Part shown: in pieces, positions 14,111 to 58,401 of the stretch
How positions within the stretch are numbered: the first letter of the stretch is position 1
Layout: the number at the start of each line of letters is the position of its first letter
NCBI GenBank assembly: GCA_041687355.1
Contig: JAWLCD010000011.1
Location: 2,217-66,216 of the forward strand
DNA length: 64,000 nt
Direction: 5' to 3'
Origin: Clostridia bacterium
GTDB lineage: Bacteria > Bacillota > Clostridia > Acetivibrionales > UBA4821
Notes under the pieces: generated by a model
The model's input: the letters and a program-made list of their open reading frames with translations, nothing else
Told to the model about the DNA's origin: nothing
Database searches by the model: none
Program-made: the position numbers and the translations under genes

Positions 14111-14260
14111 GAATAAGAATGCAAATAAAATCAACTTGACGTATATTCAAGCTTAACCGGCATATATATAGAACACCGCTCAAAACGGCTTAATATGAAC
14201 CTGATATGATATTTGTATATATTTTATATCTTATTGTATAATTAAATATTAATAATTAAT

Positions 14261-14877
14261 GGTGGTACAGTATTCTAGTCAGAACTGCCGATTCTGAAGG
14301 CGGGCCTAAAAATCCGCTAAGGGCACATCGATGAAGTTCCTTGTGCCAGCTTGCGACGCCCAGTCGTGGGTTGGTGCTGGGAGTTAAGGATTAGGGGCGA
14401 TCTGCAATGGCATGCGGGCGTTGACCCCTTTTCCGTGGAGACCTGCTTGTGTGGTTTGTAAACCTGGGGTCAGGCTGTGAAGCTTCCGCCACAGGATTTA
14501 TTAAACTACGCTGCAGGATTAAACCTGTTATGCGGTACTATTTGTGCTGTGTACAGTGTAGCCTGCCTTGAGTGAAATTGGTGGATAGCGGGTCTGGCAG
14601 ATGTTTATTGGCCGATAATTATCTGCTAATTGCTGCTTGAAACCTCTTTTGCAAAAGAGGCTAGGGGTTGGCCAGGGCTGTTGAGGAAATCTCCTAGACT
14701 GCTCGTAAAGAAGCATTTCGGGGATTACAGTGTGGACTAAGTGGTAATCCAGTCCCTTCTCCGGCGACGGGAAGGTTTCAGGTTTAATGGGAAACCGCTG
14801 AAACGGCGACGTTTGAGTACCTGATGGGGAAAGCCTACTGGACCTAAGCCGCAAAATTTACTCGAAGTGCTACCACC
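14261..14877 (+). ncRNA. ole: OLE-like (ornate, large, extremophilic) structured non-coding RNA
   Basis: No credible ORF is present. The region is GC-richer than the AT-rich spacer around it. It is closed by GGTGGTA (14261-14267) pairing with TACCACC (14871-14877) and contains many internal hairpins, e.g. CCTCTTTTGCAAAAGAGG at 14643-14660 and GGATTAC...GTAATCC at 14722-14750. The synteny nusB-xseAB-ispA ... small membrane protein-dxs is the hallmark OLE context. Strand is inferred from the operon direction, and the ends are approximate. Confidence 0.75.
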
Positions 14878-14977
14878 ATTTAATTAATAAATTGCAGCAG
14901 CTGGCTGAGTACAGCAGCAGTACATATAGAAGTAAATCTGGTTTAAAACAGATAAACAGGGGACTGGTGAAAAGTTT

Positions 14978-17537: not shown

Positions 17538-17556
17538 GCTTATTTCAGAGCATTTG

Positions 17557-17587
17557 AACGTGACAGGGGACGGTTCTCTGTCACGTT
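17557..17587. repeat. Hairpin carrying the 19-mer GACAGGGGACGGTTCTCTG, also found at 47936-47954
   Basis: AACGTGACA-[GGGGACGGTTCTC]-TGTCACGTT. The 19-mer is shared exactly with the 47.9-kb palindrome. Confidence 0.6.
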
Positions 17588-17790
17588 TTGGATATTCTTA
17601 TCAAGAGAGGTGTGAAAAGTAAGGTTCTGAAAAGTTACTCTAGAATGCTTTAGATTATTTGTAACAAGTTTGTTAATAAATTGTATTGTAAATGAAAGAA
17701 CAAAAATATAAAGATTCTTGTCAAAAAATACGATAAATCTAGTGAAATACCACCACTTTATGAAAACAAAGGAATTTTTATTAGAATATA

Positions 17791-22851: not shown

Positions 22852-22928
22852 CGGGATGTGGCTCAGCTTGGTAGAGCGCGGCGTTCGGGACGCTGAGGTC
22901 GCAGGTTCAAATCCTGTCATCCCGACCA
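22852..22928 (+). tRNA. tRNA-Pro (anticodon CGG), CCA encoded
   Basis: A manual cloverleaf fits: acceptor CGGGATG/CATCCCG, D-arm GCTC-AGCTTGGTA-GAGC, anticodon loop TTCGGGA, T-arm GCAGG-TTCAAAT-CCTGT, then ACCA. Confidence 0.9.
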
Positions 22929-23530: not shown

Positions 23531-24721
23531 ATGATTACATCAAGTGTCTGCACAAAACCGCAAAGGGATCAAGGAACTTTAATCAATGCGTATGAGGTGA
23601 ACAAGAAATTTGTTTATCCTCGTATCAGTGCAGAGGACAGCATCATTTTGAGGTATCACAAGTCCTTTGTTCCGGATATTGACTTTCAGATTCTGCAGGA
23701 TGTGTCACTTCGGGAGGGGGGTAGGATTATCGGACCCGTCGATGTCAATGGTGTAAACCTGTTTATTCTTGATATGGCGTCCCTGATGGCAGACGGGAAT
23801 TTCAAGTCTACGGTTGCATGTATGGCTGTCGCAAGGAGTATACAACAGGGAGTGCAGAGGCTGGCGGTGTGCTCGTCAGGCAATACAGCCGTCGCAATGG
23901 CAAGGTACTGCCGGGATAAAGACATCAAGCTTGACATATTTATTCCAAGGCTGTCTTCTTATAAGTTTGATTATTCAGTATTGGACCGTAAAAAGCAAAC
24001 CTTGTGGATAGTTGATAAGCCTGAGTGGGGAGTCCGCAGTACTGCAGAGACTTTTGCACACGAGCATGGGCTGCTGCTAGTTCCATCCCTGGGGCACCAG
24101 GTCGAAGCGAACGCCTGCAGGTCTTTTCTCGTCCTGGAATACATGCTGAAAAACAATATTGTTTTTGACTGGGCCACTCAGGCCGTGTCAGGAGGGCATG
24201 GACCGGTGGGGTTTTATAAAAAGCTCTATTCGCTTGTTGAGGATGGGGTAATCCAGCCTGAGATAATTCCAGGCTTCATCGGGGTTCAGCAGTCGGGAAT
24301 ATGCCCTATGCATAATGCCTGGATAAATGGGCGCAGTTATCTGACCGGTGAGGATGTAAATTTGCATCCTCAAGAGGTTCTAGAGCCTACACTTTACTGC
24401 ACCCGACCTGATGAGGGATACCGTTACCTTTACAAGAATGTTGTAAAGCCTAAAGGAGGAGCCTTCTACGCAATTGACTCCAAGGAATATTCAAGATGGG
24501 AGAGTGCGGCGCTTGGGGTATTGATAAGCTGTGGTTTCAGGCTTAAGAAGAGGAATATGGAAGGACATGGTGTGATTACAGAGAAAGCAGGAATACTTAG
24601 CTTAATGGGAGCCCTGAAGGCATTTGAAGAAGGACGGATAGCTTCAGGGGAGAATGTTCTGGTTACTTTTACGGGCACAACCGAAGTCGCAGAACCTATT
24701 CAGTGGCTTAAAGTTATGTAG
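23531..24721 (+). CDS. PLP-dependent enzyme of the tryptophan-synthase-beta (fold type II) superfamily, specific function unknown
   Basis: 396 aa with a candidate PLP lysine in GNFKSTVA and the SSGNTAVAMA motif typical of threonine-synthase/cysteine-synthase-like enzymes. RBS GAAGGAGGGGG lies upstream. Confidence 0.75.
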   Translation: MITSSVCTKPQRDQGTLINAYEVNKKFVYPRISAEDSIILRYHKSFVPDIDFQILQDVSLREGGRIIGPVDVNGVNLFILDMASLMADGNFKSTVACMAVARSIQQGVQRLAVCSSGNTAVAMARYCRDKDIKLDIFIPRLSSYKFDYSVLDRKKQTLWIVDKPEWGVRSTAETFAHEHGLLLVPSLGHQVEANACRSFLVLEYMLKNNIVFDWATQAVSGGHGPVGFYKKLYSLVEDGVIQPEIIPGFIGVQQSGICPMHNAWINGRSYLTGEDVNLHPQEVLEPTLYCTRPDEGYRYLYKNVVKPKGGAFYAIDSKEYSRWESAALGVLISCGFRLKKRNMEGHGVITEKAGILSLMGALKAFEEGRIASGENVLVTFTGTTEVAEPIQWLKVM

Positions 24722-24756
24722 AGATATAAGTTAAGATTATTATGAGATTTACTTTT

Positions 24757-24782
24757 AAATCAGGCAGTATGCCTGATTTTTT
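24757..24782 (+). terminator. Rho-independent terminator of the PLP-enzyme gene
   Basis: AAATCAGGC-AGTAT-GCCTGATTT followed by a T-run. Confidence 0.75.
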
Positions 24783-24994
24783 ATCCGATGAATACCGCCG
24801 CTAAGACTCCCCTCTTGTTCAAGTGGGAGCATTAAAGATGGACACTATCGCTAAGATTTCTTTGAAATCAAGCGACTAGTAGCCTAAGGCGGCGCTACGT
24901 CCCTGGATAACGGCTTCTAAGATTCAGATGGAGAAAGAAACTCCACCTGAATCCAAGAATCCTGTTTATCCGATGAATACCGCCGCTAAGACTC
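24780..24994 (+). repeat. Dispersed structured repeat, copy A (one ~188-bp unit plus a 30-bp restart of the next unit)
   Basis: The 30-mer TTTATCCGATGAATACCGCCGCTAAGACTC occurs at 24780-24809 and again at 24965-24994. The whole unit recurs in reverse complement at 58214-58401. Confidence 0.85.
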
Positions 24995-25094
24995 TCCTAG
25001 AGGCTTGAATAATATTGGTGTGATTGCGGCAATAATAATACCTGTGAACTTATAAGTGCTTAAGCAGAGAAATAAGGCCGGGAGATGAAAAATC

Positions 25095-25376
25095 ATGGAG
25101 AAAGATAAGGGCAGATCCAAGGCTCCATTTGATATAGATAAGGTATCATTTAAAAATGTAAACAGTAGTTTTGAAAAGAAATTCAGGGAACGCTATGAGC
25201 AGTCGATTAAGATGATATCTGATGATTTAGGCGGACTAGTTAGTGCTATAGGTTCCAATTCACTGGATATTCTTGAGAAAATGGCCCAGCGCATAGAATA
25301 CTATGACATGAACTCAGATTTTGAAGACAGTTATCATCAACTTCTTAAGGAATACGAACCGTTCACAGAAACCTAG
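25095..25376 (+). CDS. Hypothetical acidic soluble protein
   Basis: 93-aa ORF with GGAGATGA upstream. No recognisable motif. Confidence 0.5.
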   Translation: MEKDKGRSKAPFDIDKVSFKNVNSSFEKKFRERYEQSIKMISDDLGGLVSAIGSNSLDILEKMAQRIEYYDMNSDFEDSYHQLLKEYEPFTET

Positions 25377-26538: not shown

Positions 26539-26615
26539 ATTTTCCTCCAGGAATTCTCTCTTATTAGAGTTTCCATTGGAAGTGTAATTATTCAAATCAA
26601 TAATTTGACTTGTGC

Positions 26616-26640
26616 AGCGATTAAGTTTGCGGAGAAATCC
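26616..26640. repeat. 25-bp direct repeat, copy 1 (AGCGATTAAGTTTGCGGAGAAATCC)
   Basis: Near-identical to 26745-26769. TAAGTTTGCGGAGAAATC is shared exactly. Confidence 0.8.
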
Positions 26641-26690: not shown

Positions 26691-26744
26691 AGCCCGAGTC
26701 TACAACTTAATGGAGCTTCTAGGTACAGAGGAAATGAATTGAAT

Positions 26745-26769
26745 AGCGGATAAGTTTGCGGAGAAATCT
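26745..26769. repeat. 25-bp direct repeat, copy 2 (AGCGGATAAGTTTGCGGAGAAATCT)
   Basis: See copy 1. The two copies are 129 bp apart and bracket the tRNA-like fragment. Confidence 0.8.
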
Positions 26770-32910: not shown

Positions 32911-34368
32911 TTACTTAACAAAGGTTCTTCCTGTAACATATGCGTTATTATAGAATCCCTCACTTAAGGAACTTATTTTTACTACCCTTCCATTACTGGA
33001 TGATGATGCATGAATAAATTTACCGTTTCCTATGTAAATTCCTACGTGATTAACCTTCTTAGTCTTGCCTCCATTGGTATCAAAACATACCAGGTCACCT
33101 GGCTGAAGCTTGGCCTTCGGAACATATTTTCCTTGCTTGGCCTGAGCGGTTGACACTCTCTCCAGGTTAATACCGAACTTCTTAAAGACGTAACTGGTAA
33201 ACCCTGAGCAGTCAAATCCACTTGGAGAACTTCCGCCATACCTGTATCGAACTCCTAGAAAATTTCGGGAGTATAGAACCATTCTGTTTCTCAGAGTGAC
33301 GGCCGTGGCAGCAGCACTGGATGCCTCACTATTAATGCTGGGTATTTTTCCGGCGTATGTTGAAGAGACATTGACATAACTGCCGTAAACCCAGCCGGTA
33401 GTTCCGCCTGAGGATATTTTATACCACTTCCCCGACTGTCCAAGAATATGTACATCCTTGTTTGTAAGACTGGTAATAATATTGGCATTGGTTGTAGGCT
33501 TAGACCGTATATTCACATCCGTACCGTCAATTTTGGCAGGTATCTTTTCTGAGGTAGTATTTTCACTGGAAGCTGATTTCACAGCTGAAGCAGAATTGGA
33601 TGCAACCTTGACAAAGCTGCCGTAAACCCAGCCGGTAATTTTACCAGAAGATATTTTATACCACTCACCCGACTGTCCGACAATATCGACATCCTTATTG
33701 GAGAGAGTGGAAACGATTGCAGCACTAGTTGTAGGTTTTGACCTTATATTTACGTCTGTACCATCAATTTTTCCGGGTTTCTTTGATGAAGAATTTTCAG
33801 CTGTTTTCTCAGTACTGGATGCCGACAGGGTCCGGCTTGAAAGTGCAGGAGTTGATAATGAAACAAAATCATTTTTTACCCAACCTATGGTCTTGTCAAA
33901 GGACACTCTATACCAGTCTCCTGAAGAACTGACTACCTTTACCTGCTTATCGGATACACTGGTAAGTATCTGAGATGTAAGCGTAGGCTTGGTCCTTATA
34001 TTGACATTAGTTCCTTTTATTACAGCGTCCTGTGTCTTGACAATTGTTGATTTGGAACTATCATCTGAGGAATTTTCTGACTGGGGCAGCTGTTTGATAT
34101 CTGTTACATAATCAAACCTCACCCATCCTTTAACGTCTCCGGAACTTATATTATACCAGTCTCCTGAATTCCGCAGGATACTAACCTTTTTATTTGAAAT
34201 TGAACCCAGTACATCTGAGGAAGTTGTAGGTTTTGACCTGACATTTACATTTGTTCCCTTGATATACCCTGTATAATTTGCAGATACTTCTAATACATTG
34301 ACAGATAGGACGAAGACAATTACAAGAACTGTAACAAAGCTTAGAATACCTTTTCTAAAAGTAAACAT
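32911..34368 (-). CDS. Secreted cell-wall hydrolase: four SH3b repeats plus a C-terminal NlpC/P60 (C40) peptidase domain
   Basis: Signal/TM N-terminus. The pattern G(T)NVNIR.KPT...WY.(I/V)S...GWV occurs four times, and repeats 3 and 4 are nearly identical (IDGTDVNIRSKPTT...). The catalytic region reads GFDCSGFTSYVFKKFG ... NHVGIYIGNGKFIHAS. Confidence 0.9.
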   Translation of the reverse strand: MFTFRKGILSFVTVLVIVFVLSVNVLEVSANYTGYIKGTNVNVRSKPTTSSDVLGSISNKKVSILRNSGDWYNISSGDVKGWVRFDYVTDIKQLPQSENSSDDSSKSTIVKTQDAVIKGTNVNIRTKPTLTSQILTSVSDKQVKVVSSSGDWYRVSFDKTIGWVKNDFVSLSTPALSSRTLSASSTEKTAENSSSKKPGKIDGTDVNIRSKPTTSAAIVSTLSNKDVDIVGQSGEWYKISSGKITGWVYGSFVKVASNSASAVKSASSENTTSEKIPAKIDGTDVNIRSKPTTNANIITSLTNKDVHILGQSGKWYKISSGGTTGWVYGSYVNVSSTYAGKIPSINSEASSAAATAVTLRNRMVLYSRNFLGVRYRYGGSSPSGFDCSGFTSYVFKKFGINLERVSTAQAKQGKYVPKAKLQPGDLVCFDTNGGKTKKVNHVGIYIGNGKFIHASSSSNGRVVKISSLSEGFYNNAYVTGRTFVK

Positions 34369-34386
34369 TCTTACCTCCTGTTTTCG

Positions 34387-34495
34387 TAGCCTCCGGAGTT
34401 AGCTGACGGGTTCGGGAAAGGCGGTACATACCCTACCGTATCAAACGGATTCACCCCAATATGGTTCCCCCGTACCCTTAATAGGGACTAGGCTA
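34387..34495 (-). promoter_or_regulatory. cyclic-di-AMP riboswitch (ydaO/yuaA class) in the 5' leader of the SH3b-NlpC/P60 gene
   Basis: The minus strand reads TAGCCT...AAGGGTACGGGGGAACCA...GGGGTGAATCC...ACGGTAGGG...CCGCC...CCCGAACCCGTCAGCTAACTCCGGAGGCTA. This carries the conserved ACGGGG, GGGGUGAAUC and CCCGAA-CCGUCAGCUAAC blocks, with a P1 pairing TAGCCT/AGGCTA. It ends ~10 nt before the RBS. Confidence 0.8.
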
Positions 34496-34597
34496 TATAG
34501 ACACAACAAATTATGCTCTCTAGCCTGAAAGCATAATTCTGTTTAATTTACTGTTTCATATAACACTACAGGTATATTTCAAAATGATTACATTTTT

Positions 34598-36731: not shown

Positions 36732-36995
36732 AATCATAATATGGTTAAAACGTTGACGGGGAAGAGTATATTGAGTATGCCTGCCTGAAGAGAGCCGGGC
36801 AAGGTGAAATCCGGCGGAGGCTGTCAATAGAAAATCACCCCCGAGTGCCTTACGAAAGGTTTAACGAGTAGAAACGGCCGCTGACTGCGTTAAGGTCAAA
36901 TGAGAGAGTGGAAGGACATATGTTTTTTCCTTCACTAATGTGGGTGGTACCACGAGAGCCTGGCTCTACGTCCCTGTTATGACGTAGGGTCTTTA
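36732..36995 (+). promoter_or_regulatory. T-box leader, Ile-specific
   Basis: T-box core AATGTGGGTGGTACCACGAG at 36937-36956. The AGAGA box lies in GAAGAGAGCC. The candidate specifier is AUC at 36834-36836 (AGAAA-AUC-A). The terminator hairpin CTACGTC...GACGTAG (36966-36987) is followed by a T-rich tract. Confidence 0.85.
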
Positions 36996-47932: not shown

Positions 47933-47991
47933 TGAGACAGGGGACGGTTCTCTGACTCACGAAATGAGTCAGAGAACCGTCCCCTGTCTCA
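47933..47991. repeat. Perfect 27-bp-stem palindrome after lysA, containing the GACAGGGGACGGTTCTCTG repeat in both arms (probable terminator)
   Basis: TGAGACAGGGGACGGTTCTCTGACTCA-CGAAA-TGAGTCAGAGAACCGTCCCCTGTCTCA. Confidence 0.8.
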
Positions 47992-58166: not shown

Positions 58167-58213
58167 TGCTTTCATTATTATTGACTAACTGCCTATTAAT
58201 GGTAATATATTTA

Positions 58214-58401
58214 TAAACAGGATTCTTGGATTCAGGAGGAGTTTTATTCTCCATCTGAATGTTAGAATCCGTTATCCAGGGACGTAGCGCCGCTTAGACT
58301 ACTAGTCGCTTGATTTCAAAGAAATCTTAGCGATAGTGTCCATCTTTGATGCTCCCACTTGAAGAAGGGGAGAGTCTTAGCGGCGGTAGTCATCGGATAA
58401 A
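58214..58401 (-). repeat. Dispersed structured repeat, copy B (reverse complement of 24780-24968)
   Basis: Manual alignment to copy A gives about a dozen mismatches/indels over ~188 nt. Confidence 0.85.

Follow-up and report, generated by a model that had tools for sequence, protein, structure and literature searches.

A widespread family of structured, non-autonomous mobile elements in Clostridia with an IS200/IS605-like left end

The 64,000-nt stretch of Clostridia bacterium DNA analysed here (the window: GenBank assembly GCA_041687355.1, contig JAWLCD010000011.1, positions 2,217 to 66,216 of the forward strand) carries two copies, in inverted orientation, of a structured dispersed repeat. 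Copy A follows a thrC-like gene, and copy B lies between ilvE-like and histidine kinase genes, antisense to both. We conclude with high confidence that both copies belong to a family of non-autonomous mobile elements that is widespread and apparently uncatalogued; its derivation from IS200/IS605 insertion sequences (IS), with probable mobilization in trans by a Y1 transposase as in those elements, we hold with moderate confidence. The two copies and their parts, with P1 to P5 denoting helices, are as follows.

24759–24777, + strand: terminator-like hairpin (ATCAGGCA-GTA-TGCCTGAT) belonging to the upstream thrC-like gene; its T-tract merges into the TTTAT target
24780–24784, + strand: TTTAT pentanucleotide preceding copy A; target DNA, corresponding to what is called the transposon-adjacent motif (TAM) in IS200/IS605; pairs with GGATAA in P1
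24785–24969, + strand: copy A, 185 nt, expanded subtype, terminating in CCTGTTTAT
24781–24786 with 24905–24910, + strand: helix P1 of copy A
24796–24802 with 24888–24894, + strand: helix P2 of copy A
24807–24829, + strand: P3 hairpin of copy A
24844–24880, + strand: extra, lineage-specific hairpin of copy A
24895–24913, + strand: conserved core of copy A (CTACGTCCCTGGATAACGG)
24912–24961, + strand: P4–P5 hairpin of copy A
24962–24969, + strand: element-encoded end of copy A (CTGTTTAT)
24970–24998, + strand: truncated 5′ fragment of a second copy (CCGATGAATACCGCCGCTAAGACTCTCCT), 29 nt, head-to-tail behind the TTTAT that ends copy A
58213–58396, − strand: copy B, 184 nt, expanded subtype as in copy A, preceded by TTTAT
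58397–58401, − strand: TTTAT pentanucleotide of copy B; target DNA

The original prediction had described a unit at 24780–24968, a reverse-complement copy with about a dozen differences, four CTAAG motifs and a set of named helices. The unit is real, with its limits now redrawn as a TTTAT pentanucleotide plus the element proper. Direct reading and alignment confirmed the second copy at ~94% identity (the inverted arms are 94% complementary, with about a dozen differences), and all four motifs and every named helix are present. As had also been claimed, both copies are intergenic, neither overlaps a credible open reading frame (ORF), and terminal inverted repeats are absent. Covariance model R1, for which copies from other genomes were used, scored copy A at 111.7 bits and copy B at 116.1 bits (E ~1e-21), and an R1 scan of the window returned no full copy beyond these two; the 14-mer CGCCGCTAAGACTC occurs there three times exactly and four times at up to two mismatches, against a chance expectation of 0.13. 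The predicted RNA folds are far more stable than those of shuffled sequences (copy A, −65.5 kcal/mol, z = −5.2; copy B, −73.8 kcal/mol, z = −8.3), and the complementary strand folds about equally well (z = −7.8). A promoter scan found no promoter-like site inside either copy. One such site (TTGACT-16-TAATAT with an upstream TG; 58181–58208, + strand) lies between the ilvE stop codon and copy B; should the kinase gene be transcribed from it, the 5′ untranslated region of that gene would include the antisense of copy B.

Directly behind copy A, positions 24965–24998 repeat the first 34 nt of the unit at 97% identity, in agreement with the ACTCTCC variant of copy B. This restart had been noticed earlier and is genuine, but it represents an old truncated copy rather than a recent duplication. 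Window positions 24721–25095 have an ortholog in a metagenome-assembled genome (MAG; JAWLGL010000035, 1831–2185 of locus L208, where L-numbers label the loci compared), with a flanking protein 89% identical, the same TTTAT and the same terminator hairpin, which a simple terminator scan of the window had left unflagged. The ortholog is filled by a copy of another subtype, lacking P3 and carrying a TTCTAAG..CAAGAA mini-hairpin insertion in the P5 loop, behind which a decayed restart fragment (..AAGACTCTCC..) is recognisable. Because this ortholog has a decayed counterpart of it, the fragment in the window must be old, and the site has undergone re-use or conversion. Copy B, by comparison, has no counterpart in the orthologous acpS-ilvE-kinase spacer of GCA_002402315.1, a spacer too diverged to fix the exact empty site. 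The proposed comparison of filled and empty sites thus gave a different subtype at one position and no copy at the other.

The repeat is far from confined to the window. A census with the 21-nt core TCCCTGGATAACGNNTTCTAA, which is common to the window copies and a relative in C. tetani, was run on one genome per species and returned, among the matches listed, at least 113 copies in ~40 Clostridia assemblies, usually several per genome; these counts are lower bounds. Hosts among those matches are all Clostridia, including many Clostridium species, Hathewaya, Haloimpatiens, Tindallia, Petroclostridium, Ruminiclostridium, Garciella and several MAGs, and the closest relatives of the window copies among them reside in MAG 'Clostridia bacterium 30dZY2.bin.108' (JAWLGL). 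Nine IMG/VR viral contigs also bear copies. The C. tetani relative, first met as a weak plasmid match to the window unit, is 137 nt long, lacks the central hairpin and has AAGCTCT/AGAGCTT as its closing helix instead of CGCCGC/GCGGCG. BLASTN searches with the window unit and a C. botulinum unit matched C. tetani only, and no Bacillus, among 72,556 plasmids, and gave no match in phages. Against Rfam 15, including its omega-RNA/HEARO, ribozyme and small RNA families, neither copy had a match at the gathering threshold, and relaxing E to 10 added chance-level matches only (≤18 bits). In the library searched, sequence strings and keywords retrieved no paper on this Clostridial family.

Comparison of the copies revealed a common unit of 132–136 nt (typically ~134), within a range of 73–234 nt that includes the 185-nt window subtype. 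Its 5′ part consists of TTTAT followed by CCGATGACTA, the variable P2, CTAA(G/T)A, P3 (CTCCCA..TGGGAG), (A)TAAG and the 3′ strand of P2. The 3′ part continues with CTACGTCCCTGGATAACGNN, P4 (TTCT), AAG, the variable P5, C(C/T)AAG, the 3′ strand of P4 and YYCTGTT(T/G)AT, so that the right end is arranged as ..GGATAACGNNTTCTAAG-hairpin-AAGAAYYCTGTTKAT. P1, formed by TTATCCG..GAC with GTC..CTGGATAA, takes in four bases of the flanking TTTAT, and P4 is prolonged via a covarying A-U/G-C pair to AAC/GTT, three bases short of the 3′ end. The GGATAAC box therefore pairs with both ends of the unit and would bring them side by side.

Covariation across 117 copies lends strong support to four helices. When these copies were aligned to R1, 95.3% of helix cells were paired, and 27 of 40 pairs showed compensatory double changes. 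A set of 36 diverse copies gave 94.2% of cells paired, as against 30–50% with the partners slid, and compensatory double changes in 19 pairs; 0 of 500 shuffles did equally well. P1 is nearly invariant, so covariation speaks neither for nor against it; it contains a near-invariant G-U pair that would read as an A-C mismatch on the other strand. Across the helices, G-U pairs (94) are not enriched over A-C pairs (81), which does not speak for selection at the RNA level, although this signal could be blurred because dead copies decay neutrally.

The unit is also modular. Additional hairpins occur in the P3 loop, in the P5 loop or, as in the window subtype, between P3 and the 3′ strand of P2; P3-less variants and miniature units of 73–91 nt exist, and the full range of these minis is 51–91 nt (L010, L022, L045, L100). 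The 51-nt minis, CC-TAAAGGATAACG..hairpin..CTGTTAAT, lack the entire left half, consist of CC, GGATAAC, P4/P5 and the tail only, and were seen in four species (L045 5644–5825; L100 1883–2067; L006, − strand; L073 6948–7119), nested after TTTCT inside P4 of a host copy. A ~52-nt hairpin module, GCACTCTGTGAAAGCGATTCGCACCAAATC..GATTTGGGCTCTCTGCTTTTC, sits in or beside P3 in one orientation in L009, L011, L015, L017 and L028 and in the other in L006, L033 and L108, which suggests a second-order insertion or inversion within the element. On C. tetani plasmids (L117 3494–3557; also H4–H6), a 64-nt palindrome with perfect arms, ATAAACAGAGTTCTTGG..CCAAGAACTCTGTTTAT, is composed of the 3′ tail and P5 and is an inverted duplication of the element's right end.

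How the copies are bounded points to their mode of insertion. Across 106 copies, conservation starts sharply at TTTAT and stops at CTGTT(T/G)AT, with nothing conserved upstream of the former or downstream of the latter; target specificity thus resides on the 5′ side only. TTTAT itself precedes 87 of the 106 copies and T(T/C)(T/C)AT variants the remainder, with T at the first position in 103. One clade ends in TTGAT (19 of 19 members), and its 5′ pentanucleotides vary (TTTAT 9, TCTAT 3, TCCAT 2, TATAT 2, and others). From this variation it follows that the 5′ motif is target DNA, that the 3′ motif is encoded by the element and that no target duplication takes place. Terminal inverted repeats are absent from the element ends.

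Several configurations record past movement. Copies nested in the P3 loop of another copy lie directly after TCTAT or TCCAT (L003, L020, L029, L037, L080), and their removal restores the host loop exactly. Head-to-tail tandems re-use the TTTAT of the upstream unit (L010, L026, L056, L092, L097, L098 and the window), some as a full copy followed by a 5′ fragment (L097, like the window) and others as a 3′ fragment followed by a full copy (L008, L098, L058). The restart in the window is explained by the 3′ end of the element, which recreates the target and so lets new copies insert behind existing ones. Isolated fragments of either end occur often, and the partial plasmid matches comprise the palindromised 3′ end in L117 and a lone 5′ fragment in L118, neither of them an IS end. 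Long ORFs are not overlapped by 96 of 108 copies, and some copies lie directly behind terminator hairpins (window copy A, L021, L027).

These properties recall IS200/IS605 elements, which are typified by insertion after a T-rich pentanucleotide, by target recognition confined to the 5′ side and by the absence of both target duplication and inverted repeats (PMC4227781). Among the Geobacillus ISGst elements, both a TTTAT target and non-coding derivatives, termed PATEs, have been described (bioRxiv 10.1101/2023.03.14.532601). An ORF screen of all loci yielded one tnpA and no tnpB. The tnpA, in the repeat-bearing MAG locus L015, encodes a typical Y1 TnpA, and the hairpin upstream of it, CTCACATCTTCTATAAGTGGGAG, is nearly identical to P3. 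Eighty metagenomic relatives of this TnpA (L119–L198, autonomous IS200/IS605 elements) served as the comparison set, and one subfamily of them has left ends reading TTTAT followed by CCTYTTCYAGCAAGAAGACTCCSACCTCTAAGGTGGGAGATGAATTGC. Aligned with these, the repeat shares the target, the initial CC, the (T/G)AAGA loop, the hairpin and, directly behind that, AT(G/A)A, in a common layout of TTTAT, CC, ~10–20 nt (~13–20 in the repeats), a guide AAGA or AATA and a CTCC..GGGAG hairpin.

Pairing between guide and target is known for the IS200/IS605 family. Within L119–L198, the final base of the target covaries with the one just 5′ of the hairpin foot: TTTAT goes with GAAGA before CTCC, and TTTAA with GAAGT or GAATT before CTCC. 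Repeats with TTTAT carry AAGA or AATA before CTCC, as this rule predicts. The autonomous left ends also contain an invariant GATGAAT 3′ of the hairpin, complementary to TTTATC. A second model, R2, built solely from autonomous left ends, matched the 5′ ends of the repeats full-length and in register at 16–24 bits, the range in which two held-out true left ends also scored (L115, 20.1 bits; L015, 17.2 bits). Judged by these alignments, the 5′ half of the repeat shares homology, both of layout and of sequence, with the left end found in autonomous tnpA+tnpB IS200/IS605 elements with a TTTAT target.

We therefore favour, at a probability of roughly 55%, a non-autonomous, PATE-like derivative of IS200/IS605 that a Y1 TnpA-type transposase, acting in trans, mobilizes as folded single-stranded DNA. 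Selection for hairpins fits a single-stranded intermediate, unlike a double-stranded transposon of the DDE type. The element, folded as a single strand, would be transposed by the Y1 (HUH) enzyme in 'peel and paste' fashion, while the central GGATAAC would pair with TTATCC at the left junction and with GTT at the right end and so hold both ends together. The original prediction had offered three options, of which a non-autonomous mobile element that could not be classified is now supported by at least 113 copies in ~40 genomes, in unrelated contexts, by nested and tandem insertions, by a defined target and by varying occupancy of orthologous sites, and is partly classified through its 5′ half. 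The condition then named for abandoning the proposal, two copies only and no covariation, contrasts clearly with the many copies and strong covariation found. The small RNA option fared less well, as discussed below, and a REP-like element is unlikely.

Several observations weigh against this reading. The active strand of IS200/IS605 elements typically lies on the lagging-strand template, though this is not strictly defining. With GC skew as a proxy for the replication strand (it agreed with gene strand in 60 of 60 loci), the autonomous relatives showed the expected bias (24 versus 5), unlike the repeats, which divide into 45 copies on the G-rich and 56 on the C-rich strand, 35 versus 42 where skew is strong, and 28 versus 43 in the TTTAT clade. 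Flanking genes are co-oriented with the copies in just 76 of 158 cases. The 3′ half of the repeat resembles no right end of related IS elements, which read ..CCCCCACCTCTATAGGTGGGGGAGGATGTCAC or ..CCATCCACCTCTTAGGTGGTGGTAGTTCAC or take the hairpin form CCCCCACC-TCTATA-GGTGGGGG-AGGATGTCAC, and R1 found no match in the 80 autonomous loci. P5 places its G-rich arm first, the opposite of TnpA-type hairpins; P3-less variants have spread to several sites in one MAG (L013, L058, L092, L208), and some of the 51–91-nt minis have dispensed with the left half altogether. Individual R2 matches are weak (E 0.016 to ~1). Finally, no autonomous element with both ends of the repeat was present in ~0.9 Mb of repeat-bearing loci, the 80 TnpA loci, plasmids, phages or viral contigs. 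Distances from 5′ to 3′ motifs disclosed no long element, and a search of viral contigs for the 3′-domain pattern returned known copies alone. Two candidate parents were rejected: L069 is a chance 8-mer match beside ABC permease genes, and the nearest plasmid IS elements (L115, L116, L118) have different right ends and no R1 match.

The strongest competing explanation, which we regard as unlikely, accepts mobility but assigns it to other machinery, either a site-specific recombinase acting at the shared AT/TTTAT core or a rolling-circle enzyme of the IS91/Helitron type, with the left-end likeness reflecting ancestry only. It would account for the missing strand bias that sets the repeats apart from the autonomous controls and for the spread of variants without P3 or without a left end. 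The 2-nt AT ambiguity at the junction would fit a dinucleotide crossover, or equally an insertion between A and T in which the element begins with TC, and the partial units at array ends (1.16 units in the window; also L008, L098 and L058) are what concatemer-derived insertions would give. A recombination-like mechanism linked to TTTAT is likewise proposed in the literature on bcr repeats. Yet none of the copies has a recombinase or Y2 transposase gene linked to it, conservation of the target on the 5′ side alone would be unusual for dimeric recombinases that read both half-sites, strong hairpin covariation is unexpected for a purely double-stranded substrate, and the repeats obey the left-end guide/target rule.

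Somewhat more doubtful is the proposal that the conserved fold is a functional RNA carried on a mobile repeat, whether an omega-RNA-like scaffold with its guide in the 3′ flank and TnpB encoded elsewhere, a regulatory small RNA, or a self-processing RNA with GGAUAAC as splint. The fold does show the usual pattern of functional RNAs, a constant core (P1, the junctions, GTCCCTGGATAACG and P4) beside variable or expandable parts (P3, P5 and the extra hairpins), and its covariation is strong. The near-invariant P1 pair is G-U on one strand and A-C on the other, and the element ends exactly where a TnpB guide would start. PATEs, moreover, have been reported often to encode omega-RNAs (bioRxiv 10.1101/2023.03.14.532601). 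Set against this, even Rfam searches at E up to 10 assigned the copies to no family, and no likeness to the omega-RNA regions of related IS elements was seen. Conservation begins abruptly at TTTAT without a conserved promoter or terminator within the unit, and neither window copy contains a promoter-like site. Orientation relative to genes is random, the G-U counts show no enrichment, and the opposite strand folds equally well. The small RNA option raised earlier retains a low probability.

About as improbable as a functional RNA is a further possibility, in which the mobilizing machinery reads the core (P1, the junctions, GTCCCTGGATAACG, P4 and the TTKAT tail) and not the IS605-like hairpin. 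The repeat would then represent a novel type of transposon end, or else a guide RNA or self-processing RNA module, that captured an IS200/IS605 left end and spreads independently of the replication fork. On this scheme, a single-stranded circle of unit length, held shut by the internal GGATAAC splint, is conceivable; such a circle would account for the 51-nt minis, the spread of P3-less variants, the partial units seen in arrays and the lack of a strand bias.

Domestication as a repetitive extragenic palindromic (REP)-like element, that is, a protein-binding site of the host or a structural DNA or mRNA motif such as an mRNA stabiliser or terminator helper, is highly improbable: the intergenic placement of most copies (96 of 108 overlap no long ORF), the position of several directly behind terminator hairpins and the fourfold ACTCC(C/A)NYC motif, arranged as two palindromes, would suit it, but the unit is several-fold larger than REP elements or bacterial interspersed mosaic elements, its ends are asymmetric and sharply defined, self-nesting, tandems, decayed fragments and patchy occupancy of orthologous sites all bespeak selfish spread as opposed to conserved placement, and orientation relative to genes is not fixed. 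Several other identities were discarded. A classical DDE-type miniature inverted-repeat transposable element would have terminal inverted repeats and a target duplication, both absent here. RAYT-associated REP/REPIN sequences are palindromes of 20–40 nt with a GTAG-type head, as opposed to 73–234 nt, asymmetric and multi-helix. The inverted window copies are not the ends of a 33-kb composite element, as the interval holds core genes (tRNA synthetase paralogues, a T-box, a riboswitch). A hammerhead-like core was dismissed on its CCGAUGA in place of CUGAUGA and the absence of GAAA, and integron attC sites and group I and II introns on size and motifs.

Other structured features and repeats in the window, the first four identified with Rfam, are listed here.

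14246–14892, + strand: OLE (ornate large extremophilic) RNA, full-length, 558 bits
2967–3182 and 36744–36978: two T-box leaders
34373–34504, − strand: c-di-AMP riboswitch
22852–22925: tRNA
47933–47991: a second small dispersed palindromic repeat, with perfect 27-nt arms (TGAGACAGGGGACGGTTCTCTGACTCA) and a 5-nt loop; an 83% relative lies 30 kb off at 17554–17588
26606–26639 and 26735–26768: a 34-nt direct repeat (..AAGTTTGCGGAGAAATC) upstream of a ZIP-transporter-like gene
33368–33789: a 237-nt unit repeated in tandem, with two to three copies at 77% identity, near the c-di-AMP riboswitch

The RNAs in this list mark the host as an anaerobic Firmicute. The 34-nt direct repeat may be an operator or belong to some larger repeat; in MAG JAWLGL, its reverse complement, GATTTCTCCGCAAACTTAT.CGC, flanks copies of the mobile element, just 3′ of them (L014, L092). 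The 237-nt tandem unit probably corresponds to a repeated protein domain.

It is in IS200/IS605 elements and the non-coding sequences derived from them that the guide RNAs of TnpB and IscB naturally occur, as does single-stranded 'peel and paste' transposition. The present family is abundant across Clostridial groups, including C. botulinum, C. sporogenes, C. tetani plasmids and industrial acetogens. Its combination of an IS605-type left end and target rule, an unrelated, highly conserved 3′ domain and no strand bias implies either that TnpA accepts a wider range of substrates than would be expected from the IS608 and ISDra2 models or that a second route of mobilization exists. Annotation would also be worthwhile in practice: the units create repeats, assembly breaks and possible recombination sites, and a covariance model is now easy to build.

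Among known Clostridial systems, CdISt1 (a group A IStron), ISClte2 and the tnpA+tnpB element of C. sporogenes pRSJ11_1 share with the repeat their host range, a T-rich target (TTGAT, ATTAT or TTTAT) and a left-end hairpin, CTC(N)CAYC..GGTGGGAG. They differ in being 1.5–2 kb or longer and in encoding TnpA and TnpB (plus a group I intron in IStrons), and their right ends and omega-RNA regions are without similarity to the repeat.

Also close in form are the PATEs of Geobacillus stearothermophilus, related to ISGst1 and ISGst5, in a species where ISGst2 uses TTTAT. Like the repeat, they are short and non-coding, insert 3′ of a T-rich pentanucleotide without target duplication, lack terminal inverted repeats, have compensated subterminal hairpins, and possess a left end that aligns with autonomous ones and follows the guide/target rule. 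The Clostridial repeat departs from them in a right end that restates the target (TTTAT/TTGAT) instead of a distinct motif such as TCAC, in a 3′ half unlike the right ends seen, in its lack of lagging-strand-template bias, in a dispensable TnpA-type hairpin, and in the GGATAAC box that pairs with both ends; the loci searched also held no autonomous partner.

In overall character, the family also recalls bcr1–bcr3 (group A) of the Bacillus cereus group, which the literature describes, in terms that fit the Clostridial family equally, as interspersed repeats of 100–400 bp with many copies in each genome, TTTAT ends, a predicted stable fold and mobile behaviour. According to the same literature, bcr1 is confined to the B. 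cereus group, whereas the present family occurs in Clostridia, and bcr insertion possibly duplicates TTTAT, a duplication that the TTGAT clade excludes for the Clostridial elements. If it is mobilized as favoured here, the family would be, by likeness of description, a Clostridial counterpart of bcr1–bcr3, and it may also explain the TTTAT-bounded bcr repeats of B. cereus.

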